Origin: Candidatus Omnitrophota bacterium
GTDB lineage: Bacteria > Omnitrophota > Gorgyraeia > Duberdicusellales > 4484-171
Direction of reading: 5' to 3'
NCBI GenBank assembly: GCA_021735655.1
Contig: JAIPGM010000002.1
Coordinates: forward strand, 258,747-322,746
Length of the DNA stretch: 64,000 bases
The first letter of the stretch is position 1, and the number at the start of each line of letters is the position of its first letter. Below the pieces are notes generated by a model. The model saw nothing but the letters and a program-made list of their open reading frames with translations, had not been told where the DNA came from and made no database searches. The position numbers and the translations under genes are program-made. Below are positions 374-29,284 of the stretch, piece after piece.

Positions 374-1612
374 TTAGGGCATCTTACGAATAGCTTCGAC
401 CCGTTTCAATACCGGCGGATGACTATAATCCAAAAATACCTTTAATCGATGCGGGCTTAAATTAGAAAGATTGTTTACAGTGAGCTTTTTAAGCGCCGAG
501 ATAAAGGCCTCCGGATTTTGATAGGTCCTTACCGCATAGCGATCAGCTTCATATTCATGTTTTCGCGAAAGCAAATTACCGAATATTGAAAAAATAAAAC
601 TAATTGGTGTATAAAGGAAGCTAAAGAATATAAGCCCAGCGTAAACTGATATTTCATCCATTCTAAAAGCATTGAATAGCCCAGGATTTTTTATAAAAAA
701 TGAAAGCAGGTAAAACATCAGACCTTTAGTTAATGCTGAGAGTAAAAGACGTTTTATAATATGTTTCTTTTTATAGTGGCCAACTTCATGTGCTAAAACA
801 GAAACAATTTCTTCAGTAGTGTGTTTTTGAATTAAAGTGTCAAATAAAGCAATCCGACGAGATTTGCCTAAACCAGTAAAAAAAGCGTTAGACTTACTTG
901 ACCGACGCGACCCATCAATTTTAAAAATACCCTTTATCTTGAACTTTTGCGAATTAGCATAATCGCTAACCGCCTTTTTAAGCTCCCCATCTTCTAAGGG
1001 GGTAAATTTGTTAAAAAGCGGTAAAATTAACACCGGAGCAATAAAAATAAAAAAAGTACTTAAGAGAACCGTAGCCAACCAACACCAAAGCCAAGCTCCC
1101 TGATCGCTAAACTCGACAAAAAGACGTACAATTAAATAGAAAGCCGGACCGGCAATAATTACCAACAATATCCAGTTTTTAATTAGATCAGTAATAAAAG
1201 TTTTTACGGTAGTTTTATTGAATCCATACTTCTCTTCAATAACAAAGGTCTGATAAATAGAAAAAGGTATCTCAATAATTTGAAGTCCGAAAACAATAAT
1301 TCCGGCAAAAATTAAACCGCTAAACTCAATATTTGAGCTCAAATCTCGGGAGATTCGGTCAACTAAATTGAATCCTCCGCTTAGAATAAAAATGATAACA
1401 ACTGTCGTAAAGACGGTTTTTTGAATAAGACTAAAGTAAGTATTTTCTTTAAGGTATTTTTGCGAACGACTATAGTCCTCAGGATTATAATAACCTTCAA
1501 ATTCTGCAGGTAGACTAAAACCAACTGAGGAAATATTTAACATCTCTACGGTCACCCGCAAGACATACTCGCCGATTAAAATAGCTAAAATAATAACTAA
1601 ATAAGGATTCAT
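374..1612 (-). CDS. M48 family zinc metalloprotease, Ste24/CAAX-protease-like, polytopic membrane protein
   Basis: 412 aa with multiple hydrophobic helices. HEVGH zinc motif (LAHEVGHYKKKH) and a downstream EYEADRYA glutamate, which is the typical Ste24-like M48 architecture. Confidence 0.85.
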   Translation of the reverse strand: MNPYLVIILAILIGEYVLRVTVEMLNISSVGFSLPAEFEGYYNPEDYSRSQKYLKENTYFSLIQKTVFTTVVIIFILSGGFNLVDRISRDLSSNIEFSGLIFAGIIVFGLQIIEIPFSIYQTFVIEEKYGFNKTTVKTFITDLIKNWILLVIIAGPAFYLIVRLFVEFSDQGAWLWCWLATVLLSTFFIFIAPVLILPLFNKFTPLEDGELKKAVSDYANSQKFKIKGIFKIDGSRRSSKSNAFFTGLGKSRRIALFDTLIQKHTTEEIVSVLAHEVGHYKKKHIIKRLLLSALTKGLMFYLLSFFIKNPGLFNAFRMDEISVYAGLIFFSFLYTPISFIFSIFGNLLSRKHEYEADRYAVRTYQNPEAFISALKKLTVNNLSNLSPHRLKVFLDYSHPPVLKRVEAIRKMP

Positions 1613-1650
1613 AAAACTATTTATTTTTTGAAGTTGAAACTGACAAGATT

Positions 1651-1840
1651 AAAAAAACCGACAAGGGCTTCACGGTGTGTCTACCGGCAACTCAGCCACC
1701 ATCATAGTCTAAGGCTCATACTCGCAAAGTTGGGGAGCGTTGCGTTTTAGGAGAGCTTGCGAATCATCTCGCCCAAGAACTATCTTAGGTCTGTCAGTTT
1801 TGCGCCCCTTACTTTCGTAAGGTTTGCCCTTATCGGCACC
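1651..1840 (-). promoter_or_regulatory. c-di-GMP-I (GEMM-I)-like riboswitch/leader RNA ending in a U7 tract
   Basis: Minus-strand RNA GCCGAUAAGGGCAAACCUUACGAAAGUAAGGGGCGCAAAACUGACAGACCUAAG... matches the remembered Vc2 aptamer core. The match covers GGGC-AAA, a 6-bp stem capped by a GAAA tetraloop, the G.CGCAAA junction and the CCUAAG receptor half. The 3' end GCCCUUGUCGG+U7 (1668..1651) pairs with the 5' CCGAUAAGGGC (1836..1826). Confidence 0.55.
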
Positions 1841-1843
1841 TTA

Positions 1844-1873
1844 ATTATACAATATTTTTGGTGCTAATTTCAA
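1844..1873 (-). promoter_or_regulatory. Sigma-70-type promoter for the GEMM-like leader
   Basis: Minus strand reads TTGAAA (1873..1868), an 18 nt spacer, then TATAAT (1849..1844). The predicted +1 near 1837 is the first base of the leader helix. Confidence 0.45.
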
Positions 1874-1903
1874 CCCAATATTCAGAATATATATACAATA
1901 TCG

Positions 1904-2962
1904 TTACTTTGTCAGATGAACAGTCTGAGTAGGAAAAGCAAATTCAATCTTTTTCTTCTCAAATTCACCCTTAATGCCCAGGTTTATCTCTTGTTGAATA
2001 TCCATATATTTATTATAATCACTGCTAAGCACGTAATAGACTACCTCAAAAATAAGATTAAACTCACCATAAGAAAAGAAATGAGCTCGATCCAAAGTGG
2101 CACCCTCAACACCTTCAATTATCTCCCCAATAATCTTAGGTATTTCTTTTAACTTAGAAAGAGATGTGTCATAAGTAGTACCCAGCTGAAACATCACTCT
2201 TCGTTTCTGCATTCGCTTATAATTACGTAAGCGAGAATCCGTCAAATCAGAGTTAGAAAAAACTAGCTGTTCGCCGCCTAAACTGCGAATTCGAGTAGTT
2301 TTAATTCCAATGTTTTCTACTGTTCCCAAAAGATCGCCAACAATAACAAAATCGCCAACTTCAAAGGGACGGTCAAAAATAATTGAAAAATAACTAAATA
2401 AATCCTTTAGAACTGCTTGGGCAGCCAAAGCAATGGCTACACCACCAATACCCAACCCGGCAATAACCGTTGATATTTTAAAACCTAAGTTGTCTAAATA
2501 GAAAATAATAGCCAGGGCCCAAATAATAAACTTAGTAACCCTCAAAACACCCTCTAGACTATTCTTTAAAGTTTCACTGCGCCTAGACTTTCGCCAATAA
2601 ACATCTAAACTATAGGTAATTATACGAATCAATAAACGGACCGTAAAAAAAGTTATTAGCGCCATCACTAGAACGCCTAGGCCGCGATTAACCTGTTCAC
2701 TTAAGGTCAAGGTTTTAAGACTTAAGTAGAAGGCCGCAAGGTAAAAAATCGGAATAGCTATTTTCTCAATAATTTCAGCTAAGAAATCATCAATACTAGT
2801 AAGCGTCTTTGCAGCTAAACTTCTGAGTTTTTTTAAAATGATGAGCTCGAATATCTTTATTACAACACAAGCTAACAGGAATGCACCAATATGAACAATA
2901 TAATCCTGTAATGAGTTGCCAAGTATAATGTACTCTGAAAATTCTTGCATAGTTACCCCCAA
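1904..2962 (-). CDS. Mechanosensitive ion channel family protein (MscS-like)
   Basis: 352 aa. N-terminal TM helices followed by the MscS beta-domain signature (GDFVIVGDLLGTVENIGIKTTRIRSLGGEQLVFSNSDL). Confidence 0.85.
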   Translation of the reverse strand: MGVTMQEFSEYIILGNSLQDYIVHIGAFLLACVVIKIFELIILKKLRSLAAKTLTSIDDFLAEIIEKIAIPIFYLAAFYLSLKTLTLSEQVNRGLGVLVMALITFFTVRLLIRIITYSLDVYWRKSRRSETLKNSLEGVLRVTKFIIWALAIIFYLDNLGFKISTVIAGLGIGGVAIALAAQAVLKDLFSYFSIIFDRPFEVGDFVIVGDLLGTVENIGIKTTRIRSLGGEQLVFSNSDLTDSRLRNYKRMQKRRVMFQLGTTYDTSLSKLKEIPKIIGEIIEGVEGATLDRAHFFSYGEFNLIFEVVYYVLSSDYNKYMDIQQEINLGIKGEFEKKKIEFAFPTQTVHLTK

Positions 2963-2981
2963 AAAAATATCAGTTAAACTG

Positions 2982-4175
2982 TTAATTTTCCGAAATCGAA
3001 TACCGAACTTTAGATTTTTGTATTTCCAAAGTGCTAGCCAGTTCGGTTTCAGTTACAAACCCGAGTTCTTTTAAAATTTCTCCAAGCATAATTCCTCTTT
3101 TCCAATGAATTAAAAGAGCTTCATCGAGCTGATTTTGAGAAATTGCCTTTCGTTCAATTAATATCTGACCTAAAGGTTTATCATTGGTTGTCTTTCGATG
3201 ATAGATTTCCGGTGTTGCGTCTTTATTTGTTTTGGTGTCACGACGATCAACCATAAATTTGCTCTCAGGGATAGTTTTGAGGTAACGCTTTATTTCGGTA
3301 ACTTTTTCATTAAGCTGAATCATATTTTCGATACCAGAAGTGTACTCTCGATTGACTACGGCAATCGAAATTGTCATCAAAGGTGTATTTGTTAATTTAC
3401 GAGTTCGATCGCGATTAACCACAAAACCTTGGTTGCGATCTATTTCAGAGTAATGAAAAGGAATAATCGTATCGAAACTTTTAATAAAATTGTGGCATAT
3501 TTGTGCGTATTTATCCATGGTGCTGATAAAAACAAAATCATCTCCTCCAATATGACCGATAAAATCATCAGAATTTCCGAATTTTTTTACCGCGTCAATT
3601 AACAAGTGAGTTGTATGAAGAATTACTCCGTCACCTTTACGGTAGCCATAGACATCATTGAAAGATTTAAAATTATCAATATCTAAATAAGCAAATGAAA
3701 ATGGTTTTCCAGTTTTAAACTTTTCATTTAAGGCATCCTCAAATATTTTAGCACCAGGAAGACCAGTTAAGGAACTCGCATAAATACTGTGTTGGGCGCG
3801 TCTTGCAGCCATTTCAATTCGAATACGTAAATCAAGCGGGTCTGGTGGTTTTATCAAATAATCATCGACTCCTTGCTTTAGACTTAATAATTGAGCGCGT
3901 AATTGCCGCTTATTGATTAAAGTTATGACCGGAGTAAAAGCAGTGGCAAAATTTTCTTTTAAAAGCCGACACATGGCTAATTGTTCTTTACGGGCTGATT
4001 GAATATCAATGACTATGACATCAGGGGAAATTCTTTTTATTTTTTCGATATCTTGCGGTTGAGTAAATTCACGTAGGAAAACTTCGTATCCCCAACCGTC
4101 AAAACAAAAGCGCAGAACCTCTTTTAATTGACTATCCGAAGAGATAATTAAAATTTTATGTATAGTATCAATCAT
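2982..4175 (-). CDS. Response regulator receiver - GGDEF-type diguanylate cyclase (GGDDF variant) - C-terminal MshEN-like domain
   Basis: REC domain (ILIISSD...DVIVIDI...PVITLI...DDYLIKP). GGDEF domain (LTGLPG, YLDIDNFKSFNDVYGYRKGDGVI, IGGDDFVF). C-terminal tandem LGxxLxxxxxxxxxxLxxAL motifs (PLGQILIERKAISQNQLDEALLIH / MLGEILKELGFVTETELASTLEIQ) as in T2SSE_N/MshEN c-di-GMP-binding domains. Confidence 0.85.
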   Translation of the reverse strand: MIDTIHKILIISSDSQLKEVLRFCFDGWGYEVFLREFTQPQDIEKIKRISPDVIVIDIQSARKEQLAMCRLLKENFATAFTPVITLINKRQLRAQLLSLKQGVDDYLIKPPDPLDLRIRIEMAARRAQHSIYASSLTGLPGAKIFEDALNEKFKTGKPFSFAYLDIDNFKSFNDVYGYRKGDGVILHTTHLLIDAVKKFGNSDDFIGHIGGDDFVFISTMDKYAQICHNFIKSFDTIIPFHYSEIDRNQGFVVNRDRTRKLTNTPLMTISIAVVNREYTSGIENMIQLNEKVTEIKRYLKTIPESKFMVDRRDTKTNKDATPEIYHRKTTNDKPLGQILIERKAISQNQLDEALLIHWKRGIMLGEILKELGFVTETELASTLEIQKSKVRYSISEN

Positions 4176-4183
4176 TTAAACTA

Positions 4184-7100
4184 TTATACCACTTTCTTCT
4201 GTTCCTCAATTATTTTTTGGGCTATTTCCTTTGGTACCTGGGTGTACTTTTTAAAATGCATTGAGCAACTTGCCCGGCCACTAGATAAAGACCTAAGATT
4301 GGTTACGTAACCAAACATTTCCGAAAGTGGAGCCTCAGCCGAAATTAGCTTTTGGTTACCTTTTGAATCCATACCTAAAATTTTCCCCCGACGCGCACAA
4401 AGATAACCAACAATACCACTAGTATGCTCTTCTGGAGTAAGTACTTCCAAGCTCATGCAAGGCTCAAGAAGAACCGGACTCGCTTTTAAAAAAGCGTTTT
4501 TAAAGCAAGTTCTTGCAGCAATTTTAAACGCTAACTCTGAAGAATCAACTTCATGGTATGAACCATCAACGAGCTTTACCTTAACATCGACCACCGGATA
4601 ACCGGCATAAGAACCTTTTTTCATTGCTTCAATAATACCTTTCTCAACTGCCGGTATATAGTTTTTAGGTATTGCTCCACCTTTAATGCTATCTTTAAAT
4701 TCAAAACCAGCAGCTTCTTCATTAGGAGAAAGCTCAATCGCTACGTGGCCGTATTGGCCTCTGCCTCCGCTTTGCTTAGCATGTTTATACTCTTCGCTAG
4801 TAGACTGAAGGATTGTTTCTTTATAGGCAACTTTAGGCTGACCGGCCTGCGCTGAAACCTTAAATTCTTCCTTCAAACGTTCAACGATTATTTCAAGATG
4901 TAATTCTCCCATACCAGAAAGAATTGTTTCAGAGGTTTCCTCGTCGGTATGAGCGTTAAAAGTGGGGTCTTCTTCTGCTAGTTTAGCTAAACCCTTGGCC
5001 ATCCTATCCTGATCGGAACGACTCTCCGGTTTTATGCTGATTGAAACGACTGGCTCAGAAAATTCAATTGACTCAAGTAATATTGGATTTTGAATGTCAG
5101 AGAGTGTATCGCCGGTTAAAGTGGAACTGAGACCGACAATTGCCGCAATATCACCGGCAAACACTGCGTCAACATTTTCTCGTTGGTTAGCATGCATTCG
5201 AACAATTCTCCCGATACGCTCTTTTTTATTTTTAGTTGCATTTAAAACATAAGTTCCGGCCCTTAAGCATCCCGAATAGATTCGAGCATAGATCAATTTA
5301 CCTACATGCTGGTCAGCTTGGACCTTAAAAGCAAGCGCTGAAAAAAATTCATCATCTTGAGGCTTACGTTCCAAGCTTTTTTCTTTATCATCGGGGTCAG
5401 AACCAATAACTGGCGGAATTTCAGCCGGAGAAGGTAGATAGGCAACAACTGCATCAAGCAAGTCTTGAACACCCTTATTTTTTAATGCTGACCCGCAAAA
5501 AACCGGAACAATCTTATTTGAAACTGTAGCTTTGCGCAAAGCCTCAGTCAGATCGTCTTTGCTGATTGACTCCTCTGACTGTAAGTATTTTTCCATTAAT
5601 TTACCATCATAAGAGGCTACCCGATCAACCAAACTATGGCGGTATCTTTGAGCGATTTCTTTATAGCTTTCATGAATATCTTCCGACCTAATATCTTTGC
5701 CTAAGGATTCGTCATTATAAAGATGCATTTTCATATTAATAAGATCAATTATGCCTTTAAAGTCACCTTCCTTACCGATCGGTATCTGTAAGGCAACTGG
5801 TTTAGCCCCAATAGTATTTTCGATCTCTTCTAAAACCTTAAAAAAATCAGCCCCGACCCGATCCATTTTATTTATAAAGGCTATCTTCGGTACATGATAT
5901 TTATCCGATTGGCGCCATACGGTTTCAGTTTGAGACTCTACTCCTCCCACCGCACAAAATACAGCAACTGCCCCATCTAGGACCCTTAACGATCTTTCAA
6001 CTTCAGCGGTAAAATCAACGTGGCCGGGGGTATCAATAATAGTAATTTGGCAATCTTTCCAACTACAAGTGGTTGCAGCTGAAGTTATAGTTATACCTCT
6101 TTCCTGTTCTTGTTTCATCCAATCCATCTGAGCTGCCCCGTCATGAACTTCGCCGATTTTGTGCGACCGGCCGGTATAGAAAAGAACTCTTTCAGTAAGA
6201 GTAGTTTTCCCAGCATCAATATGGGCCATAATCCCAATATTACGGATCTTGCCCAGTTCTATTTTTCTCTCCGGCAGTGGCTCCTCTACTTTTTTTACTG
6301 CTTCAGGCTTAGGCTCGGCTTGTATTTCTGGTTCTTGAGCCGATAGCTCCGGAGTCACTTCTTCACTTGCGGTTTCAGGTTGCCCTTGGGTCAAATCTTT
6401 AGTTTCACCTTCCTGCCCTTGGATTAAAGATTCGTCTTCCTTTAGCGATTCTTTATCTGAAGGTAACTCTTCAAATTCCTTAGTTTCTGAAATAGGTTCA
6501 CTTGGCTGCGCCTGAACTAACTCATTCTCAAGATTGGAAGATTCTTTTTGAGAATCACCGTCCTCAATTAAAAGAATATCTGCTAACTCATCGTCCTTAA
6601 TAACGCCGCTTCGTTTAATCTCGCGTAATTTATTAAGAATACGAATCCGCTCCTGATCAATTTTTTCGATATCTTTACCTTTTAGCTCCAACTCCTTAGA
6701 TTTAATCTCTAACTCATTTTTTAATTCTTCACTTTGTTCTTCTAAAAGAGAGTACTCTTCTTTAGATACCCATTCGCTTTGACGTTGTTTTTCTTTCATT
6801 TGAGCAACTTCAGCAGCATGTGCGACAGTTTCTTTAGATAGCTGGTGCATTCTTTGAGTCTGATCTTTTAGCTCACTTTCCAAAGAAATAATCTTATCTT
6901 TCAATTGATTGATATTGACTTCACGAATTTTGATTACTTCTTCAGCTTGATCAAGTTCTTTTTTAAACTGCACACTCCGGGAAAACTCTTTCTCTAAATC
7001 CTTTTCCTTAGTAATCAATTTAACTCTCAAAGCCTCATAGGGACCTTTTCCTTTTTTCAAAGTAAGCTGCTGACTATTAAGCCATTTTTTATTGCGGTTA

Positions 7101-7393
7101 ATTTCCTCGCCCAATTCTTTAGCCTTGAGGCTAAGCTTTTGATGCTCATCTTGCAAGCTGAGATACTCAGCCTGAGTTTTTGTTAAGGCGACAATTTCAT
7201 TTTTTAATTTTGTTAGTTCCCTTTTTGAAGATTTAAGGTTTTCTGACAAGGCAGAAATTTTTTGTTGTTGCAAGTCAGGCTTAAGGCCAAACTTTGTACC
7301 CAGAGTACCTTTTAAAACTGAATCATCTTCGTTGTTAACTAAATACAGTACTAGGGCAATCGATACTCCAATTACAACAAAAATTAAAGTCAT
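4184..7393 (-). CDS. Elongation factor G paralog fused to an N-terminal TM anchor, coiled coil and acidic linker (1069 aa)
   Basis: Residues ~375-1069 are a complete EF-G ([31 protein letters not shown], domain [12 protein letters not shown]). Residues 1-21 are hydrophobic ([21 protein letters not shown]). Residues ~40-265 are heptad-like and K/E/L/Q-rich. Residues ~270-375 are an E/P/Q-rich linker. It is one uninterrupted ORF. Confidence 0.9.
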
Positions 7394-7430
7394 ATTAAAA
7401 TTATATCATATCTTTGCTATAAACAAAGAC

Positions 7431-7458
7431 TTGAGAGTTAAAATATGCGTGCTATAAT
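7431..7458 (+). promoter_or_regulatory. Sigma-70-type promoter placing +1 on the yqeY start codon (leaderless candidate)
   Basis: TTGAGA (7431..7436), a 16 nt spacer, then TATAAT (7453..7458). The ATG at 7465 lies 7 nt after the -10 box, with no Shine-Dalgarno sequence in between. Confidence 0.4.
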
Positions 7459-7464
7459 AAGACC

Positions 7465-7911
7465 ATGTTAGAAGAAAAAATTTACCAGGATTTTATAGCT
7501 GCCCGCAAAGCCAAAGAAAAGGTGAGTTCTGACCTTCTCGGTATTATTCGCTCAGAACTCAAAAACAAGGCTATTGATTTAAAAAAAGATAAAGTTGATG
7601 ATACGGAAGGTTTAACAGGACTCAAAAAACAGCAAAAACGCCTCCTTGATACTAAAAAAAGTATTGCTCAGTCACAAAGAAACGATTTGATTGCTAACAC
7701 TAATCAAGAAATCGCCCTTTTAGAAAAATATCTGCCTAAACCGCTTGCTGATGATGAATTGATAAAAATTATCGAAATAGCTATTTCGGATGCTAATGCT
7801 TCCTCAATTAAAGATATGGGTCGAGTAATGAAAGAAGTGATCGCTAAGGTTGGCGTTCGGGCTGATTCGAAAAAAGTTAGCCAAATAGTTAAAGAGAAAC
7901 TTTCAGCTTAA
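7465..7911 (+). CDS. yqeY: GatB/YqeY domain-containing protein
   Basis: 148 aa with the typical YqeY layout (...AARKAK......L..I.SE.KNKAIDL... LEKYLP..L...EL..II...I......S.KDMG.VMK.V..KV...AD.K.VS..VKE.L). Confidence 0.85.
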   Translation: MLEEKIYQDFIAARKAKEKVSSDLLGIIRSELKNKAIDLKKDKVDDTEGLTGLKKQQKRLLDTKKSIAQSQRNDLIANTNQEIALLEKYLPKPLADDELIKIIEIAISDANASSIKDMGRVMKEVIAKVGVRADSKKVSQIVKEKLSA

Positions 7912-7912
7912 T

Positions 7913-8236
7913 TTACCACTCTCCAGACCATTCAACATCGCCACTTTTGCCTATGTCTTGAAAAAGCTCCTGAATGAATTCAATAATTGGATGAGTGTTT
8001 TTTTGAGCGGCCTTTTTAATTAGATTTTCTAAACGTTGAGGTTTTTCTATTTCCTCACTAACTTTATCAAAATTAAAATCAACTTCCTTGTCAAAATAGT
8101 TTTCTAGATCTTTCATGAAAATTTTTGAATTGTAGTTTTGACGATAATCAGCTAACCTAGTTATTTTCTCAGCTCTTTGACGACGAAAAGATTCAAGTCT
8201 AGGATCCTCTTTTTCGGGCCTTTTTGAATCACTCAT
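7913..8236 (-). CDS. Hypothetical acidic protein
   Basis: 107-aa ORF in the co-directional gene array. No motif recognised. Confidence 0.5.
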   Translation of the reverse strand: MSDSKRPEKEDPRLESFRRQRAEKITRLADYRQNYNSKIFMKDLENYFDKEVDFNFDKVSEEIEKPQRLENLIKKAAQKNTHPIIEFIQELFQDIGKSGDVEWSGEW

Positions 8237-8244
8237 CTTAAATT

Positions 8245-8871
8245 TTAAGGGTTAATCTTGTCACGATTCCAAGAATGCCAAGTCCGTTGTTGGTTTTCAA
8301 TTTTCCAAGAACCATCTTTTTGCTTAACAACTGAAAGATAAATCCCGGCTCCAGTAGAGCGATTCCATTGATTAGCGACATGCAAGATAGCACGAGTTCT
8401 TTGACGGTTAAAACCTACCCGAGAAAGAGTTAAAATTCCTCCTGAACTAGGATAACGGTCATAATAACTATCCCAGTGAGGATTATGATCAAAAATATAG
8501 TCAATTTCTTTTTGACTAATAATAATGTAATCGACCCGTTGATTTATAAAGCTCTCTAAAGAATAAGTCCTTACATTCTTGGCCTTAAAATCATTAATAA
8601 TTTCATCTTCTAGGACAGGCATTTGCTGTCTAACGTAGTCTAGCTCAGTTTCAATCGGTCTGCCTAATTGGTAAACGCTGGTATGATCTCGAATCAATAT
8701 CTCTTTATTTTGCTCATTTGAATACCACTCGTCAACCACCGTTGAGTAAATTAAATACTCATCCAGTTCAAAGCCATATTCATTAATACCTAAGGCATTA
8801 CCTTGGGGTAAAATGATTAAGCAGACAATCACTATGAAGATATAGCGCTTGATTTCCATTAAAAATATCAC
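8245..8871 (-). CDS. Hypothetical secreted protein
   Basis: 208-aa ORF with an N-terminal hydrophobic signal-like segment (IFIVIVCLIILPQGNALG). No family recognised. Confidence 0.55.
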   Translation of the reverse strand: MIFLMEIKRYIFIVIVCLIILPQGNALGINEYGFELDEYLIYSTVVDEWYSNEQNKEILIRDHTSVYQLGRPIETELDYVRQQMPVLEDEIINDFKAKNVRTYSLESFINQRVDYIIISQKEIDYIFDHNPHWDSYYDRYPSSGGILTLSRVGFNRQRTRAILHVANQWNRSTGAGIYLSVVKQKDGSWKIENQQRTWHSWNRDKINP

Positions 8872-8893
8872 TAGCTCTAAAGAGGTGAGCTCT

Positions 8894-9127
8894 TTACATC
8901 AAAGTTACTGCTTCTTGAATGAATGGTAAGATTGCTTCAGCTTCTTCTTTAGAAACTCTTCCTAAACGGGTAAGCCTAAAGTCACCGTTTGAATCCCGAT
9001 TTTCGCGGGTAATTTGCAACTTCTTAGCACCTTTGTTGTAAGAAAATACCCCGACTGTGACTTTTGTTGTTTCTGATTCCCAAGATTTAGAAAAAATCTT
9101 CTCGTCTAAATTGCTATCGTATGGCAT
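8894..9127 (-). CDS. Small hypothetical protein, possibly PC4/YdbC-like
   Basis: 77-aa ORF. Its size and beta-rich pattern are loosely reminiscent of YdbC/PC4-type ssDNA-binding proteins. This is a weak call. Confidence 0.45.
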   Translation of the reverse strand: MPYDSNLDEKIFSKSWESETTKVTVGVFSYNKGAKKLQITRENRDSNGDFRLTRLGRVSKEEAEAILPFIQEAVTLM

Positions 9128-9176
9128 ATGCCCTCCTTTTTAACCGATTTATTATATCACATAATTTACAATTCGA

Positions 9177-9896
9177 CTATTCCTGTGCCGAATGAGTTGT
9201 ATGTTTTTCAACAAAAAGTACTATTTTTTCTTGAATTTCAGGATTTATGTCATTAAATTCAAGCCCCATACCGGGAAAATCTTCCGGCTGTATCTCTTGG
9301 TCAGAAATCCAGACTATTTTAGCATCAACTTCAAGTGTACCTGGTTCAGGAATTAGGTGTATTCGAGTATGTAATAAATCACCCATTGAAAATAATTTTT
9401 GGGCAGCTACAAAAACTCCATCCCCGCTTAAATTGATAATTTTTCCGCTATAGAACTCATCTTGACTAGAAAACTTCTGTCGGTATTCAATACTGGAGTT
9501 AAACGGTATTCGTTTAAAGCGTCGACGAAACTGACTGTCTGATGACTCAATGATATTCTTTTCTTCCTTAATCTTCTTTATCGCATGATCTTCGGTAACA
9601 TGATATTCAAAGATTCGATCTAAACCTACGATTGAAAATAATTTCATTACATGGGAGGGAACATTGCATAGCTTCATTGCTCCCTGATGATTCGATACAT
9701 TTTTATAAATTACGGCAATAAGTGATATGCCTACATAATCAATTAAATTAACACCTTCAAAATTACAAATGACGTTCTTGGATTTATTACTAAGAACCCA
9801 GCCAACAGTTTCAACAAAATTAGAGGCATTGATATCAATATTCCCTTCTAGGTCCAAAATGGCCATGCCCTCTTTTTCACGAATATCTATCTTCAT
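9177..9896 (-). CDS. STAS (anti-sigma-factor antagonist) - PilZ fusion protein
   Basis: The N-terminal ~110 aa is a STAS/SpoIIAA-like fold (MAILDLEGNIDINAS...NLIDYVGISLI...KLCNVPSHVMKLFSIVGLDRIF). The C-terminal PilZ domain has both c-di-GMP motifs, RRxxxR (RRRFKR) and (D/N)xSxxG (NLSGDG). Confidence 0.85.
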   Translation of the reverse strand: MKIDIREKEGMAILDLEGNIDINASNFVETVGWVLSNKSKNVICNFEGVNLIDYVGISLIAVIYKNVSNHQGAMKLCNVPSHVMKLFSIVGLDRIFEYHVTEDHAIKKIKEEKNIIESSDSQFRRRFKRIPFNSSIEYRQKFSSQDEFYSGKIINLSGDGVFVAAQKLFSMGDLLHTRIHLIPEPGTLEVDAKIVWISDQEIQPEDFPGMGLEFNDINPEIQEKIVLFVEKHTTHSAQE

Positions 9897-9940
9897 TTGT
9901 CTCGACGAAATTACCCCTCTAGGGATTTGGTTAAGTTACC

Positions 9941-10675
9941 TTAGACAATTATGCTCAGAATTGCTACTAAAATACAGTAATAACCAAAAATAGCAAATTT
10001 CTCAGATTTTAGCACTTTTTTGACTATTTTCAAAGCTAAAAATCCTGAAGCAAATGCGGCCACAAAACCTCCACTAGCAGCCAAAATTGACATATTTAAG
10101 TCGGGTAGCTCCTTCATTTTTAGCAAAAATGCCCCTAAGGTAACTGGGATCATCATTAAAAACGAGGTCGTAAACGCCTCTTTTGGTTTAAAACCCCTAC
10201 CGATCAATCCAACGATAGTAATCCCTGAACGAGATATCCCTGGAAATATAGCTAAGCCCTGCAATAACCCGATAAATAATGATTCTTTTGTGGTAACAGT
10301 ATCATAATTTCGCTGTCCGAAAACTTTTTTCATACTAAGCAAAATTAGACCATTTATGATGAGAAGTAAACCAATCCAAAGTTTATTTTCAAAAAAACCA
10401 ACTAAAAAAGTGTTAATAGCTAGGCCAATTATTGCAGTAACTAGGGTAGTTATCCCTAATTGAATCAAAATCCTTCTTTTAGACAAAACTGACAATATGT
10501 CTCGACGTAAAAAAATAACGACTGCCAACAAAGTTGCTAAATGAAGAAGAACAAAGAAAGGAAGTAAATTTTGGCTAAAAGACAAAAGTCTTTTTATGAT
10601 ATAAAGATGTCCGGAGCTACTTATTGGAAGGAATTCAGTTAATCCTTGAGTAATGCCCAAAGCTATGGTTTTCAC
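9941..10675 (-). CDS. uppP: Undecaprenyl-diphosphate phosphatase
   Basis: 244 aa polytopic membrane protein with the BacA/UppP signatures LTEFLPISSSGHL and PGISRSG. Confidence 0.9.
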   Translation of the reverse strand: MKTIALGITQGLTEFLPISSSGHLYIIKRLLSFSQNLLPFFVLLHLATLLAVVIFLRRDILSVLSKRRILIQLGITTLVTAIIGLAINTFLVGFFENKLWIGLLLIINGLILLSMKKVFGQRNYDTVTTKESLFIGLLQGLAIFPGISRSGITIVGLIGRGFKPKEAFTTSFLMMIPVTLGAFLLKMKELPDLNMSILAASGGFVAAFASGFLALKIVKKVLKSEKFAIFGYYCILVAILSIIV

Positions 10676-11484: not shown

Positions 11485-13455
11485 CTAAAAGCTTACTTTA
11501 CAACCGGCAAAGAAGTTTCTTTCTGGAGAAGGATAAAGTCCTCGCGTGGTACCGGTAAGATTAGTTGCAGCGTACTCACTGTAAAGTTCGTTAAATAAAT
11601 TATTAACACCGGCAAAAAGCTCTAACTTTTTTCCGGTATAACTTAATTTTATATTAGTTGTGTTGTAACTTTTTAACTTAGGGCTGATATTATTAAGATC
11701 ATTAATTAAATAAACTTTATCTCGATAAAGATAATCAGCAAAAAATGAAAAGCGTTCAAAAAAATCATATTTTACCGAAGCTGTAAGCATAGCCTTAGGA
11801 ACGAAAGGAACTTCCTTTCCAGCGTAAACACCGCCACGGAATTTCGCATCGATAAAGCGATAGCCGAGAGTAAACTTTGTATTGTCAAATGGGGTAAGGG
11901 TTGTAGTGAGATTCGCACCTTGACGACGAATTTTACTATAATTTTCGTTAGCGAACGTCCCTGGGTTGTAGTATATTTCGTTATTAACATTCATTTGAAA
12001 ATAATCCAAAGATGTGGTTAAAAAGTCAGTTAAACGCATATTGGCCCCCAAACTTATAGTTTTAGAACGTTGTGGTTTTAAATTTGTATTAATTGCTGCA
12101 GCCGGCCAAGTAACTAAGTATTCATCGGTCTTACCGACCCTCAAACCTCGCGAAAAATTAAGATAAATATTACTTTCGTTATCGATTTTATAGTTAAGTC
12201 CAGTTTCATACAAGCCTTCTCGAAAATTCAATCCATCATCAGTGCTTGTAGAACCAAAATAATCAAAAGTAAACTTTTCTTTTTGCACCCTAGCCCCTAA
12301 ATGCCCAGCAAGTTTTTCATTAAAGCTAATTTCATCCTGTAAAAACCAAGCTAGGCTCTGTCGATCAATGTCAGTAGCCGCGCTTGAGGTATCAGCTGAT
12401 AAATCCGAACTATAAAATTCAAATCCGGCAATTAGCTCTTGTTGAATTCCTCTAGTATCAAAAGACAATAATAGTTGTGGCCGCGCTTGAAAATTAGTTA
12501 TATGTTTGTCAGTAGACATGCTATAAGAAAGTAAATCCTCCAACTCATTTCGGTTACGATAAAATAAATCAACTGAAGCAATCAGCTCAGGTGAAAACTC
12601 GTTTTTAATAGTTAAGCCTAAAGTATTATCCTCTCGTTGATAGTTATTTAAAGGAGTTGTTGAGTCACGACGTGAAGTTCCAGCTAACCGTTCAGCTTCG
12701 GTTATATCATCTGGCAATCCATAGATATATTCGTGATGAGTCAAGTCAGCACTTATCTCTAACTGTTCGGTAGGCCTAGAGTTTAGTTCTATTGAGCTGT
12801 ATTTTGAGCGGTAATGACTATTTTGACGATAACCACTTGTTGAATGGTACTCAGAAAATGTGCGAAACGATAAAAGGTCTTCTCCACCTGAGGCTGAAAT
12901 AGACTCTTTGGTCGAGCGGTAACTTCCGGCTTCAAAGTTAACTTCAACTGAAAGATCCTTAGCTTGAGGATCTTTTGAAATAATATTAACTATTCCTCCG
13001 GCAGCACCCTCTCCATACAGGACAACTCCGCCACCCCGGATTACTTCTATTCGTTCAACATTTTTTAAGGGCAACTCAGTCCAGTTAACTCCGCTCATAT
13101 CGATTTCATTAATTTTTCGACCATTCACTAAAACCAGCATGTTTGATGCAGCATTATCACCAAAACCCATCATATCAACAGTTGTCTTAACGTTAGTTCC
13201 GTAATAATCGCTGACGTGTAACGACGGAACATTTCTTAAGAAATCAATTACTGTGCTTGATCCGCTAGCCTTGATATGTTTCTCGGTATATACTTTGGTC
13301 GCATAAGGAGTTTCAGAAATTGTTGTTTCTTCTACTCCGGCATAAGGAGTTACTACTATTTGCTCTAAATCTATTTGTCCTTGCGCCAACAAAGGACTTA
13401 ATGATCCAAATTGAATAGTCAAAAATAATATTAAAAATACAAAACACCTTTTCAT
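11485..13455 (-). CDS. TonB-dependent outer-membrane receptor (BtuB-like, under cobalamin riboswitch control)
   Basis: Signal peptide, then a plug domain (VVTPY...; IEVIRGGGVVLYGEGAAGGIVNII), a long beta-barrel and a C-terminal aromatic residue (KVSF). Start moved to the ATG at 13455 (MKRCFVFLIL), which follows an AAAGGAGGGGG Shine-Dalgarno sequence. The tracked 5' extension overlaps a terminator hairpin. Confidence 0.85.
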   Translation of the reverse strand: MKRCFVFLILFLTIQFGSLSPLLAQGQIDLEQIVVTPYAGVEETTISETPYATKVYTEKHIKASGSSTVIDFLRNVPSLHVSDYYGTNVKTTVDMMGFGDNAASNMLVLVNGRKINEIDMSGVNWTELPLKNVERIEVIRGGGVVLYGEGAAGGIVNIISKDPQAKDLSVEVNFEAGSYRSTKESISASGGEDLLSFRTFSEYHSTSGYRQNSHYRSKYSSIELNSRPTEQLEISADLTHHEYIYGLPDDITEAERLAGTSRRDSTTPLNNYQREDNTLGLTIKNEFSPELIASVDLFYRNRNELEDLLSYSMSTDKHITNFQARPQLLLSFDTRGIQQELIAGFEFYSSDLSADTSSAATDIDRQSLAWFLQDEISFNEKLAGHLGARVQKEKFTFDYFGSTSTDDGLNFREGLYETGLNYKIDNESNIYLNFSRGLRVGKTDEYLVTWPAAAINTNLKPQRSKTISLGANMRLTDFLTTSLDYFQMNVNNEIYYNPGTFANENYSKIRRQGANLTTTLTPFDNTKFTLGYRFIDAKFRGGVYAGKEVPFVPKAMLTASVKYDFFERFSFFADYLYRDKVYLINDLNNISPKLKSYNTTNIKLSYTGKKLELFAGVNNLFNELYSEYAATNLTGTTRGLYPSPERNFFAGCKVSF

Positions 13456-13487
13456 ACTACCCCCTCCTTTAAAACTAATCTTAAAAT

Positions 13488-13516
13488 AAAAAAACCCTAT
13501 ACCTTCTGGTATAGGG
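13488..13516 (-). terminator. Intrinsic terminator/attenuator hairpin just upstream of the receptor RBS
   Basis: Minus strand CCCUAUACC-AGAA-GGUAUAGGG (a 9-bp perfect stem) followed by U7. Confidence 0.6.
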
Positions 13517-13544
13517 TGCACCCTGATTTACTTGGCCCTAAAAT

Positions 13545-13790
13545 AAAAAAATTCAGGTAATGTTTCCACGCAAAACCTAAACTTTGCTTCTTACGGCAGG
13601 TCTTCTGACTTCCCTACATCTTTTAGCTACCTTCCCACCTGCATTTTAAAACAGATAGTGGTTTAAATCGCTAAAAGGGCCCTAAAATTATCTCTAGGGG
13701 TCGGGATCACAGCACCGGGAGTGTCTCCGATTCTCACGGAGTTCCCTATTAAGCTCCTTTTGAGCACCGTAAAATTAGCTACTTTTATAC
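13545..13790 (-). promoter_or_regulatory. Cobalamin (B12) riboswitch with terminator expression platform
   Basis: The minus-strand RNA contains GGUGCUCAAAAGGAGCUUAAUAGGGAACUCCGUGAGAAUCGGAG...GCUGU and a B12-box-like ACCACUAUCUG...GCAGGUGGGAAGGUAGC. It ends in the hairpin UUUAGGU...ACCUGAA (13581..13552) followed by U7 (13551..13545). Confidence 0.8.
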
Positions 13791-25813: not shown

Positions 25814-27310
25814 CTAGAAAAAGAGATCTCTTTCGCCTTCTTTAATCCTTCGATAATAACTCATGAATTGGTCAAAAACCTGAGGGATGTTTTTGCGGAC
25901 TTCCTCTATTTCTTTCGTGATTACTTTCTCAGCTATATTTTTAGTTTCCTCGCTGGCAAAATCATCTAACCATTCACGAAAAGTTAAAACAGCATTTAAT
26001 TTACAAAATTTACCTTCTTGACCAGTTTTAAGTAACTCCATAATGCATTCACCCGTTCTGCCGCAGCGATAACCAGCAGTACAAAAAGAACTGATTACCC
26101 CCATTGAGGCAAACTCTCTAATCATCTCATCTAGGCTACGAGTATCAGCCAAAATAAATTGCTGTCGGGGGCTGTCTTGAGTTTTACTCTGATCGCTGTA
26201 TGAACCAATTCCTATTTTGGTAGAAGCATCAGTTTGAGTTATTCCTAGCCTGATTGAATCTCTCTTCATCTGAGGGGTTTCCCGACAAGTAATAATTAGA
26301 CCAGTATGAGGCACAGCCAGTCTAAGCACAGTAATTAACTTTTTAAACTGCTGATCCGAAACCTTATATTTTAAATTATCATTAAAAGGCGTGTTTTCTG
26401 CCGGTTCAAGGCGTGGAAAAGATATCGTATGAGCTCCGACACCAAATTTATCCTCTAATTCACGATTATGCGCAACCAAGCTCATTAGCTCAAACTTCCA
26501 ATCGTAAAGCCCAAATAAAACACCCAAGCCAACATCATCAACCCCAGCCTCAAAGGCACGATGCATCGCATAAAGTCGCCAGAAGTAATTTCCTTTTATT
26601 GTAGTTGGCGGATGAATAGTTTTATAGGTGGTCTTATGGTAAGTCTCTTGGAAAACTTGATAGGTACCAATTCCGACATCTTTTAGACGACCCAATTCCT
26701 CTATCGATAAGGGCGGAGCATTCACATTTACCCGACGAATCTGACCAACGCCATTTTTGGTTTTCTCCCGAACATTATAAATAGTACGAATTGAATCAAC
26801 CATGTAATTTATATCATTCGAAGGATGCTCTCCATAAACGACAATTAAACGTTTATGACCAATCTTACCAGCCAAAACAGCGGTTTCCTTCTCAACCTGC
26901 TTTAAGCTTAAGACTCGGCGTTCACTCTTTGTGTTAGATCGTCTGAAACCACAATAAAGACAATCATTAACACAATAATTCCCAAGATAAAGCGGAGCAA
27001 AGGTGACGATTCGATTGTCATAAACCTTTCGCTTCACCCTTAAGGCGCATTCCTTCATCAATTCTAATGTTTTAGAATCAGTTACCCTTAAAAGGGTTGC
27101 CGTCTCATCAAGAGTTAAAGTTTTAATCGCTAAGGATTTATTTAAAATGTCTTCGACTTCTTTGGAATCAGGCTCCTGAGTGCATGATAATTTCGTAAAG
27201 ATTTCTTTCTGAGGAATAAAATCCTTACCCTCAATCATATAACGCTCAATTTGGTCGCGCTTTATACGTTGAGACTCCCAACTCTGAAATTTATTAGTCT
27301 TAATTAACAT
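25814..27310 (-). CDS. hydG: HydG-like radical SAM enzyme (ThiH/HydG family, with a Cys-bearing C-terminal domain)
   Basis: 498 aa. Radical SAM motif CVNDCLYCGF and a ThiH/HydG-like core. The C-terminal FCTAGYRCGRTGECIMELLKTGQEGKFC sits where HydG carries its auxiliary-cluster cysteines. Confidence 0.75.
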   Translation of the reverse strand: MLIKTNKFQSWESQRIKRDQIERYMIEGKDFIPQKEIFTKLSCTQEPDSKEVEDILNKSLAIKTLTLDETATLLRVTDSKTLELMKECALRVKRKVYDNRIVTFAPLYLGNYCVNDCLYCGFRRSNTKSERRVLSLKQVEKETAVLAGKIGHKRLIVVYGEHPSNDINYMVDSIRTIYNVREKTKNGVGQIRRVNVNAPPLSIEELGRLKDVGIGTYQVFQETYHKTTYKTIHPPTTIKGNYFWRLYAMHRAFEAGVDDVGLGVLFGLYDWKFELMSLVAHNRELEDKFGVGAHTISFPRLEPAENTPFNDNLKYKVSDQQFKKLITVLRLAVPHTGLIITCRETPQMKRDSIRLGITQTDASTKIGIGSYSDQSKTQDSPRQQFILADTRSLDEMIREFASMGVISSFCTAGYRCGRTGECIMELLKTGQEGKFCKLNAVLTFREWLDDFASEETKNIAEKVITKEIEEVRKNIPQVFDQFMSYYRRIKEGERDLFF

Positions 27311-27952
27311 CTAACTTCCCTGCTTTACAAAAAATATTAAACTCTCTAACTCACAAGCCATATCAACGTTAGAAACAAATATATTATCAGGAACTTTCAA
27401 GGCAATTGGAGCGAAGTTAAGTATTCCCTTAATATTTGAATCGATTAACTGGTTAGCTATGTCTTGAGCTACTTCAGGCGGCGTAGCTATTATTGCTATT
27501 TTTATTCCATCTTTTTTAATCATTTCACTCAAATTATCAATAGCCTGAACTACGATACCTTTTTTTGTTTTACCAATCTTTTTCTGATCATTATCAAAAA
27601 TTGCAGTAATTTTTATATTAAACTTTGAAAAACCATCGAACCCCAACAAGGCCCCACCGACTCTACCTAGGCCTACCAAAGCAATATTCCAATCAATATG
27701 GGTTCCGACTATTTTTTGGATTTGTCCAATTAAAAAATCTACGTTATAGCCCACACCGCGCTTGCCAAATTCACCAAAATAAGACAAATCCTTTCTAAAC
27801 TGAGACGGAGTTACGTTTAAAAACTTAGTTATTTTATCCGAAGAAATAACTTCAACTCCCTGCTTTTTTATTTTTCGTAAGTTACGTAAATACAGAGTAA
27901 GCCTTCTGATCGTTTCCAAAGAAAAATGTTTCTTGTCTTTACTGTTTTTCAT
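27311..27952 (-). CDS. rex: Redox-sensing transcriptional repressor Rex
   Basis: 213 aa. N-terminal winged helix (TIRRLTLYLRNLR...ISS..I...L.V...QFRKDLSYFGEFGKRGVGY) followed by the Rossmann motif (VGLGRVG). Confidence 0.85.
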   Translation of the reverse strand: MKNSKDKKHFSLETIRRLTLYLRNLRKIKKQGVEVISSDKITKFLNVTPSQFRKDLSYFGEFGKRGVGYNVDFLIGQIQKIVGTHIDWNIALVGLGRVGGALLGFDGFSKFNIKITAIFDNDQKKIGKTKKGIVVQAIDNLSEMIKKDGIKIAIIATPPEVAQDIANQLIDSNIKGILNFAPIALKVPDNIFVSNVDMACELESLIFFVKQGS

Positions 27953-29270
27953 CAGATACTCTAGTATCCCGAGCTATACCTAAATCGGTAGGCGCCCGGC
28001 CTAAAGATTTAAGTAAATTAATAGTCTCAGTAATCTGATCATTAATCTCCGCTTCGCCATAGGCCTTATTAGGATAAATTGCATAATACTTTCGATATTT
28101 ACGCGGAGTTAAATTGAGCATTACCGAATTTCCACCCGAAGACAATCCTTTCTTGCGTGCCTCTAAAGATAAGGTCTCAAAGGCTGTGGTTATAAGAATT
28201 TTAGCCGCTTCTGGATCGATTAAACGAGCCAAAGCAAGGTTTTTTAAAACTTCTTCTTCAGAAGGAGCTTTGCAATTGGCCAAGAGACTATTCGGGTGAG
28301 GCAAAAATGGCCCAAATGAGTACATCTCAGAGCCCAAAGCCTTAGTTAGATAAATATCATTTATCGTATCTTGATTAGTTTGACCAGGCAAACCAATCAA
28401 GGCACCAGTCATAACTAAATACCCTAATTCATGGGCTTTTTTTAGATGATCCAGGCGACTATCTAAAGTTTGGCCAGGATGTAATTTCTCATAGATTTTA
28501 GGATTTGAAGTTTCAAAACGCATCAACAATGCTCTTGCCCCAGCCTGATAAAGCTTAAGCAATCCATCAAGCCCGACTTCACCAAAGCTTATACAAATCA
28601 AAACTGGAACCGTTTCTTTAATTTTTCTTATAATTTCCGCTAGATCATCTATGCTATAGTGTGGGTCTTCTCCCGATTGCAAAACTAAAGCCTGGAAACC
28701 ATACTCTTTAACGGCACCAACTGCCGTCTCAATGATTTCCGCCGCTGACATTCGATAACGCATAAGATTCTGGTTGTCAGCTGAAATACCACAATATTGA
28801 CAACTCTGCTTACAAAAATTAGATATTTCGATTATCCCATGAATACAACATGAATTTTTATGGTACTTTTGACGCAAAAAGTTAGCGGTTCGATAAAGAA
28901 TATCTTGAGCCTCAGGCTTATCTAACTTAAGTAAATAAAATAACTCTTCTTTACTCAATTGAATATTTTCTAAAGCTTTATCTAAAATAAGACTTAGCTG
29001 CCTGTCGATATTTTTTTTGCTAAGATCCAAGCGAGACAATCGTAAGTCCATATCCTGAAGTTCGAAAAAAAGCTCATTCCAAGCTGCCAAGGTCTCCTCA
29101 GCCTCCTTTGGGGAAACTTTTTTAATTACAAACCCGCCTTGAGCCGACACATAATCACCGGGTTTGATATCATAAAACTCATTGATTGCTTTTTTTTCTT
29201 CACCAAAGTAATCAACCAGAACGGTTTTCCCAACTATTTCTTTTACCTTGCCAGGTATTGCATAACACAT
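27939..29270 (-). CDS. hydE: HypC-like domain fused to a HydE-like radical SAM enzyme
   Basis: The N-terminal MCYAIPGKVKEIVGKTVLVDYFGEEKKA...GDYV..QGGFVI is the HypC/HupF signature (MC[LIVA][AG][LIV]P). It is followed by the radical SAM motif CKQSCQYCG and a HydE/BioB-like core (ETSNPKIYEKLHP, GLPGQT, FGPFLPHP). Start placed at the second Met so that Cys is residue 2. The ORF track starts 4 codons upstream, at 29282. Confidence 0.8.
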   Translation of the reverse strand: MCYAIPGKVKEIVGKTVLVDYFGEEKKAINEFYDIKPGDYVSAQGGFVIKKVSPKEAEETLAAWNELFFELQDMDLRLSRLDLSKKNIDRQLSLILDKALENIQLSKEELFYLLKLDKPEAQDILYRTANFLRQKYHKNSCCIHGIIEISNFCKQSCQYCGISADNQNLMRYRMSAAEIIETAVGAVKEYGFQALVLQSGEDPHYSIDDLAEIIRKIKETVPVLICISFGEVGLDGLLKLYQAGARALLMRFETSNPKIYEKLHPGQTLDSRLDHLKKAHELGYLVMTGALIGLPGQTNQDTINDIYLTKALGSEMYSFGPFLPHPNSLLANCKAPSEEEVLKNLALARLIDPEAAKILITTAFETLSLEARKKGLSSGGNSVMLNLTPRKYRKYYAIYPNKAYGEAEINDQITETINLLKSLGRAPTDLGIARDTRVSDEKQ

Positions 29271-29284
29271 AACAAACTCCAATT

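Follow-up and report, generated by a model that had tools for sequence, protein, structure and literature searches.

The 64,000-nucleotide stretch analysed here (the window), from contig JAIPGM010000002.1 of a Candidatus Omnitrophota bacterium, carries near one end a set of elements related to cyclic di-GMP (c-di-GMP) signalling: a response regulator of the GGDEF family with a C-terminal MshEN-like module (the cyclase-like protein), a STAS-PilZ protein and a c-di-GMP-I riboswitch. They lie among genes for a long form of elongation factor G (EF-G), an MscS-family channel and an M48 protease. Judged by sequence, these c-di-GMP-type components are genuine because their Rfam, Pfam and NCBIfam matches lie above curated thresholds and the PilZ domain carries both motifs. 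We suggest, at slightly better than even confidence, that they make up a genuine but loosely organised c-di-GMP neighbourhood, in which the product of the cyclase-like protein is read by that protein's own tail, by the STAS-PilZ protein and by the riboswitch of the M48 gene, and in which the position of the EF-G gene reflects inherited gene order. What is new is the HIGGDDF-MshEN-like response regulator and the fact that it is paired with STAS-PilZ; the neighbourhood itself is not.

In this model, a kinase would phosphorylate D57 of the receiver (REC) domain, the protein would dimerise in the manner of WspR, PleD or DgcR, and its GGDDF domain would make c-di-GMP from GTP. The protein's own MshEN-like four-helix tail may read this c-di-GMP, providing feedback or retention as a substitute for the RxxD inhibitory site, which is missing. 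The canonical PilZ domain of STAS-PilZ would read it as well and, in the sub-lineage of the window, so would the riboswitch, which would set M48 expression.

The M48, MscS, cyclase, EF-G and STAS-PilZ genes and the riboswitch all lie on the minus strand, as do almost all genes of the window, and every element listed in the original prediction was recovered where it had been placed (Rfam, Pfam, NCBIfam). Positions below are those of the window.

374-1612, minus: M48 (Ste24/HtpX-like) membrane metalloprotease (Pfam Peptidase_M48_N 161.7 bits, Peptidase_M48 127.4 bits)
1651-1670, minus: short conserved hairpin and U-run between aptamer and M48 start codon
1683-1838, minus: c-di-GMP-I (GEMM-I) riboswitch aptamer (RF01051, 60.8 bits, E = 1.9e-9, model positions 1-87 of 87)
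1844-1873, minus: sigma-70-like promoter immediately before the aptamer (TTGAAA-18-TATAAT; 11 of 12 positions agree with the consensus)
1904-2962, minus: MscS-family mechanosensitive channel (Pfam MS_channel_1st, 2nd and 3rd)
2982-4175, minus: response-regulator GGDEF-family protein with C-terminal MshEN-like module (Pfam, NCBIfam, AlphaFold2 (AF2), Foldseek)
3018-3176, minus: its MshEN-like 53-residue module, residues 334-386 (NF053729, 55.6 bits, profile positions 1-53 of 53)
3231-3773, minus: its GGDEF-fold domain, residues 135-315, with the HIGGDDF motif at 3534-3548
3801-4163, minus: its REC domain, residues 5-125 (PDB profile matches to the PhoB, YycF and PleD receivers)
4184-7393, minus: long EF-G of 1069 residues, a core with an N-terminal extension
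4184-6268, minus: EF-G core, residues 376-1066 (TIGR00484, 1051.7 bits against a cutoff of 659.4)
6269-7393, minus: EF-G N-terminal extension (composition and hydropathy)
7465-7911, plus: yqeY, between EF-G and the small open reading frames (ORFs) that precede STAS-PilZ on the map
7913-9127, minus: three small ORFs (107, 208 and 77 residues), downstream of STAS-PilZ and co-oriented with it
9177-9896, minus: STAS-PilZ two-domain protein, probable c-di-GMP receptor (Pfam PilZ 59.6 bits, STAS 54.1 bits)

The response regulator and its C-terminal module

A database protein that is 100% identical to the cyclase-like protein carries the NCBI name diguanylate cyclase, and the family has more than 4600 homologues, with full-length identities near 60% across Omnitrophota. 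All 24 orthologues compared keep D57 and K109 of the receiver, and nearly all keep T85; in the AF2 model (mean predicted local distance difference test score, pLDDT, 79.8), the three residues stand at the ends of beta3, beta4 and beta5. The same orthologues have an invariant G210-G211-D212-D213-F214 motif as well as invariant H208, D165, D167, K170, N173 and D182. A REC-GGDEF-like protein is present, as the original prediction held, but its catalytic motif is GGDDF and not GGDEF. The GGDEF domain scores 50.9 bits with TIGR00254 (cutoff 37.4) and has a partial Pfam GGDEF match of 51.8 bits. In a PDB profile search, the alignment to the PleD GGDEF domain runs up to the motif, and N173, D182 and D165, together with D167 and K170, align with the DIDFFKKINDTFGHDIGD segment of PleD, so that the guanine-contact and metal-binding residues are retained. 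In PleD, N335 and D344 are the guanine-binding Asn and Asp, and D327 is the metal-binding Asp. The best Foldseek matches to the AF2 model are WspR, PleD and DgcR. Because the isolated GGDEF domains align over 171-187 columns (template modelling score 0.66-0.76), the fold is predicted to be complete despite the half-profile Pfam match. No RxxD inhibitory site stands five residues before the GGDDF motif.

As for the product, a reading as a Hypr-type synthase of cyclic GMP-AMP (cGAMP) was rejected, the diagnostic position being the invariant D182 and not Ser; in Hypr enzymes, a Ser replaces the guanine-contact Asp (PMC8835794). Because this position keeps its Asp, the protein would be expected to make c-di-GMP and not cGAMP.

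We rate it as somewhat more likely than not that the protein works as a c-di-GMP cyclase. Several observations weigh against activity. The Response_reg Pfam score (27.9 bits) does not reach the cutoff of 30.2, the Pfam GGDEF match is limited to the first half of the profile (positions 5-90 of 161), and a His stands two residues upstream of the GGDDF motif, where active cyclases usually carry Arg. GGDDF itself does not fit the accepted active-site motif [G/A/S]G[D/E]E[F/Y], other variants being usually inactive (PMC8835794), and PA3258, a GGDDF protein, is reported to be inactive. Alternatively, the protein could be no cyclase but a degenerate adaptor or receptor that binds c-di-GMP through its tail or GTP through its dead site, while the c-di-GMP that riboswitch and PilZ sense would come from cyclases whose genes lie elsewhere. 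The non-canonical motif with its His in place of the usual Arg, the Pfam match that stops at the motif and the canonical PAS-GGDEF gene that adjoins the orthologous gene in another clade (L002, L095, L094, L103 and L113 among the related loci introduced below) all fit this alternative. However, neither HIGGDDF nor any of the aligned substrate and metal positions varies among orthologues, and the motif occurs in at least 595 loci from many phyla, which fits a conserved catalytic site better than decay. Moreover, the fold is complete by AF2 and Foldseek, and GSU1937 of Geobacter sulfurreducens, the sole enzyme with GGDDF reported to be active, demonstrates that such a site can work (PMC8835794). 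We therefore consider a non-enzymatic role unlikely. The at least 595 loci, confirmed among species representatives, encode a tail-less REC and HIGGDDF family; its phyla include Elusimicrobiota, Gemmatimonadota, Clostridia, Eremiobacterota, Acidobacteriota and others (L010-L080, L115-L168).

The tail consists of two 24-residue motifs with a 5-residue spacer, matches the GSPII region of PilF (E = 1.1e-10, PDB profile search) and is modelled by AF2 as four helices (residues 335-341, 347-360, 364-370 and 376-396) with a block-mean pLDDT of 77-91 over residues 331-390, as expected of a four-helix bundle. Because the curated NCBIfam model NF053729 ('c-di-GMP_motif, MshE-related') was matched above its cutoff of 38 bits, the original assignment as MshEN-type holds at the family level, but key binding residues are replaced, which counts against the tail as a receptor. 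Both Arg and one of the two Gln of the binding motifs are missing: motif 1 reads P...K...H where the consensus is R...G...Q, and motif 2 reads M..G..Q, its start position being Met or another hydrophobic residue in orthologues. The relaxed pattern of Wang et al. does not admit these residues either (M at position 1, K at position 10, H at position 24). In MshE, Arg9 and Gln32 play an important part in binding c-di-GMP, and small deviations in PilF GSPII-A abolish binding.

STAS-PilZ, EF-G and gene order in related loci

For comparative synteny, 171 related loci (L numbers) were gathered from species-representative genomes, metagenomes and exact-protein look-ups. Forty-one of them encode a tail-bearing cyclase orthologue, and adjacency was scored where the flanking sequence sufficed (28 loci upstream, 31 downstream). 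The pairing that recurs across lineages is that of the cyclase and STAS-PilZ genes: the STAS-PilZ orthologue directly adjoins the cyclase gene in L003, L009, L091 and L092, which represent four separate branches, with a gap of 2 nucleotides in L091 and overlapping ORFs in L009. Throughout the window's clade, the two genes are about 5 kb apart.

STAS-PilZ itself is widespread, with at least 120 orthologue clusters of about 239 residues in Omnitrophota. Its PilZ domain, which lies well above the Pfam threshold of 22.5 bits, has both family motifs in the translation, RxxxR as RRFKR (residues 125-129) and NxSxxG as NLSGDG (residues 155-160), and the protein is thus a probable c-di-GMP receptor. 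The STAS domain passes TIGR00377 (56.2 bits, cutoff 53.45). At the site of the phosphorylatable Ser in SpoIIAA-type proteins, its translation has D-Y-V-G. The three small ORFs have no Pfam or NCBIfam match. The 77-residue and 107-residue ORFs are matched in all collinear relatives and the 208-residue ORF in L081, L082, L083 and L170 only. The 77-residue ORF that follows STAS-PilZ (8894-9127, minus) is 62-82% identical in every collinear relative and is as conserved as STAS-PilZ.

Not all comparative data favour a circuit that includes STAS-PilZ. In the complete genome CP070797.1, STAS-PilZ (at about 1.32 Mb) is far from the cyclase gene (at about 46 kb), and an ORF for a generic PilZ protein lies within 2 kb of the cyclase gene in 6 of 27 loci, roughly as often as expected from a local density of 0.58 per 10 kb. 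General PilZ enrichment was accordingly dropped as evidence; because generic PilZ genes are no closer than density predicts, only the specific STAS-PilZ/cyclase adjacency counts. One may ask whether the clustering is coincidental: c-di-GMP parts might abound in Omnitrophota to the point where a group of three within 8 kb says nothing about function, each part serving an unrelated circuit. The riboswitch, cyclase gene and STAS-PilZ gene occupy 8.2 kb of the 64 kb, for which the post-hoc probability, taking them as independent features, is about 0.045. PilZ ORFs occur about once per 17 kb in related loci, several c-di-GMP-type riboswitches are found at unrelated positions in relatives, and the riboswitch of the window is a recent, lineage-specific insertion. 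The density of c-di-GMP features is thus real but only mildly unusual, given this probability and the frequency of PilZ genes. By contrast, a STAS-PilZ orthologue that behaves like a single-copy gene, adjoins the cyclase gene in four branches and stays about 5 kb away from it in the window's clade is hard to obtain by chance, and we hold pure coincidence to be decidedly unlikely.

The EF-G gene behaves differently. It lies directly upstream of the cyclase gene in 7 of the 28 loci whose upstream sequence is long enough, and MscS lies directly downstream in 7 of 31; in a neighbour-joining tree of cyclase orthologues, all of them fall together in one monophyletic clade. This clade is collinear with the window across 16 or more matched genes, which include several housekeeping genes, in the order PPDK, sigma factor, APRT, tRNA, (cobalamin riboswitch and TonB receptor), anti-sigma factor, BacA, STAS-PilZ, small ORFs, yqeY, long EF-G, cyclase, MscS, M48 and DinB. 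Because the clade shares the whole gene order, the EF-G/cyclase adjacency is no better conserved than that of unrelated housekeeping neighbours. Within the clade, MscS and M48 directly follow EF-G in L170, whose 20.7 kb contain no cyclase gene at all, and in L171 two extra genes separate cyclase and MscS. Outside it, the long EF-G of CP070797.1 lies at about 1.08 Mb; the genes of the block are unlinked in L085, L087, L088 and L169; and the long EF-G of another lineage is flanked by MgsA and a peptidyl-prolyl isomerase. At least three other recurrent cyclase contexts exist outside the window's clade. For instance, in another Omnitrophota clade (L002 8417-10000, L095, L094, L103, L113), the REC-GGDDF-MshEN-like gene adjoins a canonical PAS-GGDEF gene, and three tandem PilZ genes lie 4-7 kb upstream.

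The original prediction had proposed that the EF-G paralog is part of a c-di-GMP-linked, envelope-associated response and had named lack of conserved gene order in relatives as a refuting outcome. This proposal is not supported: the adjacency of EF-G, cyclase and MscS is confined to one collinear clade and does not recur in independent lineages beyond collinearity, and even there L170 lacks the cyclase gene, and in L171 it is displaced. Synteny thus argues that a conserved link between EF-G and c-di-GMP is largely refuted and that EF-G and MscS stand beside the cyclase gene through inherited gene order in one clade rather than conserved functional coupling.

At the level of protein, the tethered EF-G is as had been described, a 1069-residue EF-G with a predicted N-terminal membrane helix (hydropathy). 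Its core meets the equivalog level of TIGR00484; readings as EF-G2 (513 bits, cutoff 890) and as a ribosomal-protection protein (tet_protect, 412 bits, cutoff 775) were rejected. The extension comprises a hydrophobic helix (residues 1-19, the most hydrophobic 19-residue stretch), a K/E/L/Q-rich, coiled-coil-like part (residues 26-265) and an acidic linker (residues 266-378, net charge -23), and is 32-56% identical in collinear relatives and 25-29% identical in the non-collinear L087 and L088. The long form is common in Omnitrophota, most homologues among the matches listed exceeding 1000 residues. Public annotation shortens it, to 871 residues in the window's own genome and to 797 residues for the 1051-residue ORF of CP070797.1. 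CP070797.1 has a 698-residue EF-G and, 1.6 kb away, the 1051-residue long EF-G, with cores that are 72% identical and align without gaps; because this complete genome encodes both forms, the long EF-G is a paralog there. In L088, the two ORFs of that genome are at 3548-5644 and 7239-10394. Standard-length EF-Gs with 69-75% identity to the window's core exist in the database, and the genome of the window probably has such a copy too, though none lies within the window.

The gap of 8 nucleotides between the EF-G and cyclase genes and that of 19 nucleotides between the cyclase gene and the TTG start of MscS are as originally claimed. Because MscS homologues have 348-350 residues and align from residue 5-6, the ATG at 2950 is the more likely MscS start, and the second gap would then be 31 nucleotides. 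A terminator scan gave no terminator-like site between the three genes, and their close spacing is kept in relatives. The view that EF-G, GGDEF and MscS look like one unit is borne out in these respects, but M48 and STAS-PilZ belong to separate units. The region probably forms three transcription units. One would comprise (BacA and) STAS-PilZ and then the three small ORFs, ending against the plus-strand yqeY; another would run from the long EF-G through the REC-GGDDF-MshEN-like protein to MscS; and the last would lead from its own promoter through the riboswitch to the M48 membrane protease. Plus-strand yqeY and the three small minus-strand ORFs split STAS-PilZ from the EF-G unit, and because yqeY is on the opposite strand, the two would be transcribed separately. 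The M48 unit would be separate because the promoter-like site directly before the aptamer agrees with the consensus at 11 of 12 positions, and relatives keep it. Co-transcription of the tethered EF-G and MscS with the cyclase in the window's lineage is probable, and the synteny still allows it.

These arrangements bear on the idea that the tethered EF-G, cyclase, MscS and M48 form one envelope-associated, c-di-GMP-linked module in which local c-di-GMP acts on EF-G through the tail or the PilZ domain. Gaps of 8 and 19-31 nucleotides without an intergenic terminator-like site speak for it, as does the fact that tight spacing is kept where the cyclases are 60-67% and the EF-G extensions 37-41% identical. 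Three of the four proteins are membrane proteins or membrane-anchored, and EF-G, MscS and M48 remain together in L170 even without the cyclase. However, the adjacency is found in a single clade only, in which unrelated genes are collinear as well, the block may lack its cyclase gene or have it displaced, and although long EF-G and cyclase occur throughout the phylum, they are not linked elsewhere. In addition, a full-text literature search returned no paper centred on a connection between c-di-GMP and EF-G, judged by title and abstract. We regard such a module as very unlikely. Its more specific form, an envelope-stress operon of this clade in which c-di-GMP made by the cyclase and kept nearby by its own high-affinity tail would tune translation at the membrane or membrane-protein quality control, is most improbable, and the proposed c-di-GMP-EF-G response has a slight chance, and that only as a lineage-specific speculation.

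The M48 riboswitch and other content of the window

Returning to the loosely organised neighbourhood that we favour, its RNA receptor is a GEMM-I-like leader before the M48 protease, as had been predicted: the match to RF01051 is full-length and above the gathering score of 35 bits. The order is promoter-like site (1873-1844), aptamer (1838-1683) and M48 start codon (1612), and the layout is the same in L081 and L083, in which the promoter hexamers are conserved and the orthologous aptamers score 60.1 and 61.7 bits, respectively. A 71-nucleotide insertion is present at the tip of the second hairpin of the aptamer. Within it (about 1700-1775, minus), a block CGCTCCCCAA is invariant in the window, L081 and L083, which suggests that the insertion is structured or functional. 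At the stretch compared with the G20 region of the Vc2 riboswitch, the aptamer reads AAGGGCAAACC. We assume that the string AGGGCAAACC of the window's aptamer is the same in Vc2, which would put a G at the position that discriminates c-di-GMP from cGAMP. The role of G20 of Vc2 in this distinction has been described (PMC6140456).

Between aptamer and start codon, the window, L081 and L083 share a conserved GCCCTTGTCGG(TT/CC)TTTT block. The hairpin stems at 1651-1670 have 4-5 base pairs, and the terminator scan made no call there; hairpin and U-run are a possible weak intrinsic terminator or expression platform. The minimum free energy fold of the whole leader has z = -1.96, alternative pairings are weak at just 4-5 base pairs, and the alignment of three sequences is too shallow for covariation.

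Among the loci scanned, riboswitch and promoter are found only in the window and in its two closest relatives, L081 and L083. M48 orthologues follow MscS in all collinear relatives, and in L001, L086, L089, L090, L170 and L171 the MscS-M48 gap is at most 65 nucleotides or the genes overlap, and there is no riboswitch. The riboswitch is a late addition in the window's sub-lineage. Because the riboswitch-free collinear relatives keep MscS and M48 tight or overlapping, the older arrangement appears to be a close-packed EF-G-(cyclase)-MscS-M48 array, from which the M48 gene appears to have been uncoupled in this sub-lineage and placed under a c-di-GMP-sensing leader. The N-terminus of the protease is the five-helix domain of CAAX-protease-type enzymes.

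Variant riboswitches of the c-di-GMP-I-GGC type (RF03167, 60-67 bits) are present in L081 (283-395, minus), L009 (242-325, plus) and L169 (10213-10330, plus), the last about 1.5 kb downstream of the STAS-PilZ gene, past PilZ, yqeY and HPr genes.

A Pfam scan covered 20 ORFs of the window, and the remaining ORFs were identified by reading their translations. Neither these 20 ORFs nor a six-frame motif search of the window gave an EAL or HD-GYP signature, in agreement with the original prediction; this absence concerns 64 kb out of the 323 kb or more that make up the contig, and has no bearing on the whole genome. Of the PilT and mini-pilin said to occur elsewhere in the window, PilT was found by the Pfam scan, but a scan of all six frames of the window for the canonical prepilin motif G-F/Y-T/S-L-I/V-E found none. 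PilW-like N_methyl genes occur in relatives beyond the window's left edge (L081 17953-20591). Other features are:

11485-13521: TonB-dependent receptor downstream of a cobalamin riboswitch (13578-13786, minus; 81.7 bits), a pair also present in L081 and L171
20251-21018, minus: a second, small M48 peptidase (translation reading)
25814-41873, minus: HydG/HydE-like radical-SAM genes, Rex and a membrane-bound NiFe hydrogenase with Mrp-like subunits (translation reading)
42392-53383, minus: long block for lipopolysaccharide core and lipid A, with heptosyltransferases, LpxK and WaaA (translation reading)
62808-63857: PilT (Pfam)

Significance and comparison with known systems

If true, the EF-G module would be a direct link of c-di-GMP to a translation elongation factor, for which the literature search found no precedent; the comparative data weigh against such a link. 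On c-di-GMP in Omnitrophota, the search likewise found nothing relevant, judged by title and abstract. A phylum-wide response regulator with invariant HIGGDDF and a built-in MshEN-like module would serve well as a test case for GGDDF catalysis and for self-sensing cyclases, and its recurrent pairing with a STAS-PilZ fusion suggests a c-di-GMP-controlled partner-switch output in an uncultured phylum. The M48 leader is an example of a riboswitch and promoter inserted between genes that are close-packed or overlapping in other relatives. For the tethered EF-G, the comparison provides a context: it is a paralog, and the conserved neighbours of the long form within the clade are two membrane proteins.

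Among characterised response regulators, WspR of P. aeruginosa, PleD of C. crescentus and DgcR of Leptospira share the REC and GGDEF architecture of the window's protein; they are its best structural and PDB profile matches, and the phospho-acceptor Asp is conserved in it, as are the aligned equivalents of the guanine-contact Asn and Asp of PleD. Unlike these enzymes, it has HIGGDDF in place of RxGG[D/E]EF, no RxxD site, a second domain half that is too divergent for the Pfam profile, a receiver acidic pocket of S-S-D and an extra C-terminal MshEN-like module. With GSU1937 it has the GGDDF variant in common; however, GSU1937 has the Hypr Ser and makes cGAMP, while the window's protein has D182, and the domain architectures differ.

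Compared with the MshEN/GSPII domains of V. cholerae MshE and T. thermophilus PilF (PMC5013675), the tail has the same 53-residue two-motif unit, passes the NCBIfam motif model and is predicted to form a four-helix bundle. It differs in that it is C-terminal on a cyclase-like protein instead of N-terminal on an ATPase or glycosyltransferase, lacks the MshEN_C subdomain, and has Pro (motif 1) or Met/hydrophobic (motif 2) in place of Arg at position 1, and Lys and His at the Gly and Gln positions of motif 1.

The STAS domain resembles anti-sigma-factor antagonists of the SpoIIAA/RsbV type in passing TIGR00377, and the PilZ domain resembles single-domain PilZ receptors in having RxxxR and [D/N]xSxxG. 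In the window, however, the two are fused in one 239-residue protein, and no anti-sigma kinase gene adjoins it. Finally, the aptamer is like c-di-GMP-I riboswitches of the Vc2 type in its full-length Rfam match and GAAA tetraloop, and unlike them in the 71-nucleotide insertion at the tip of its second hairpin, in its weak expression platform and in the gene under its control, which encodes an M48 membrane protease.

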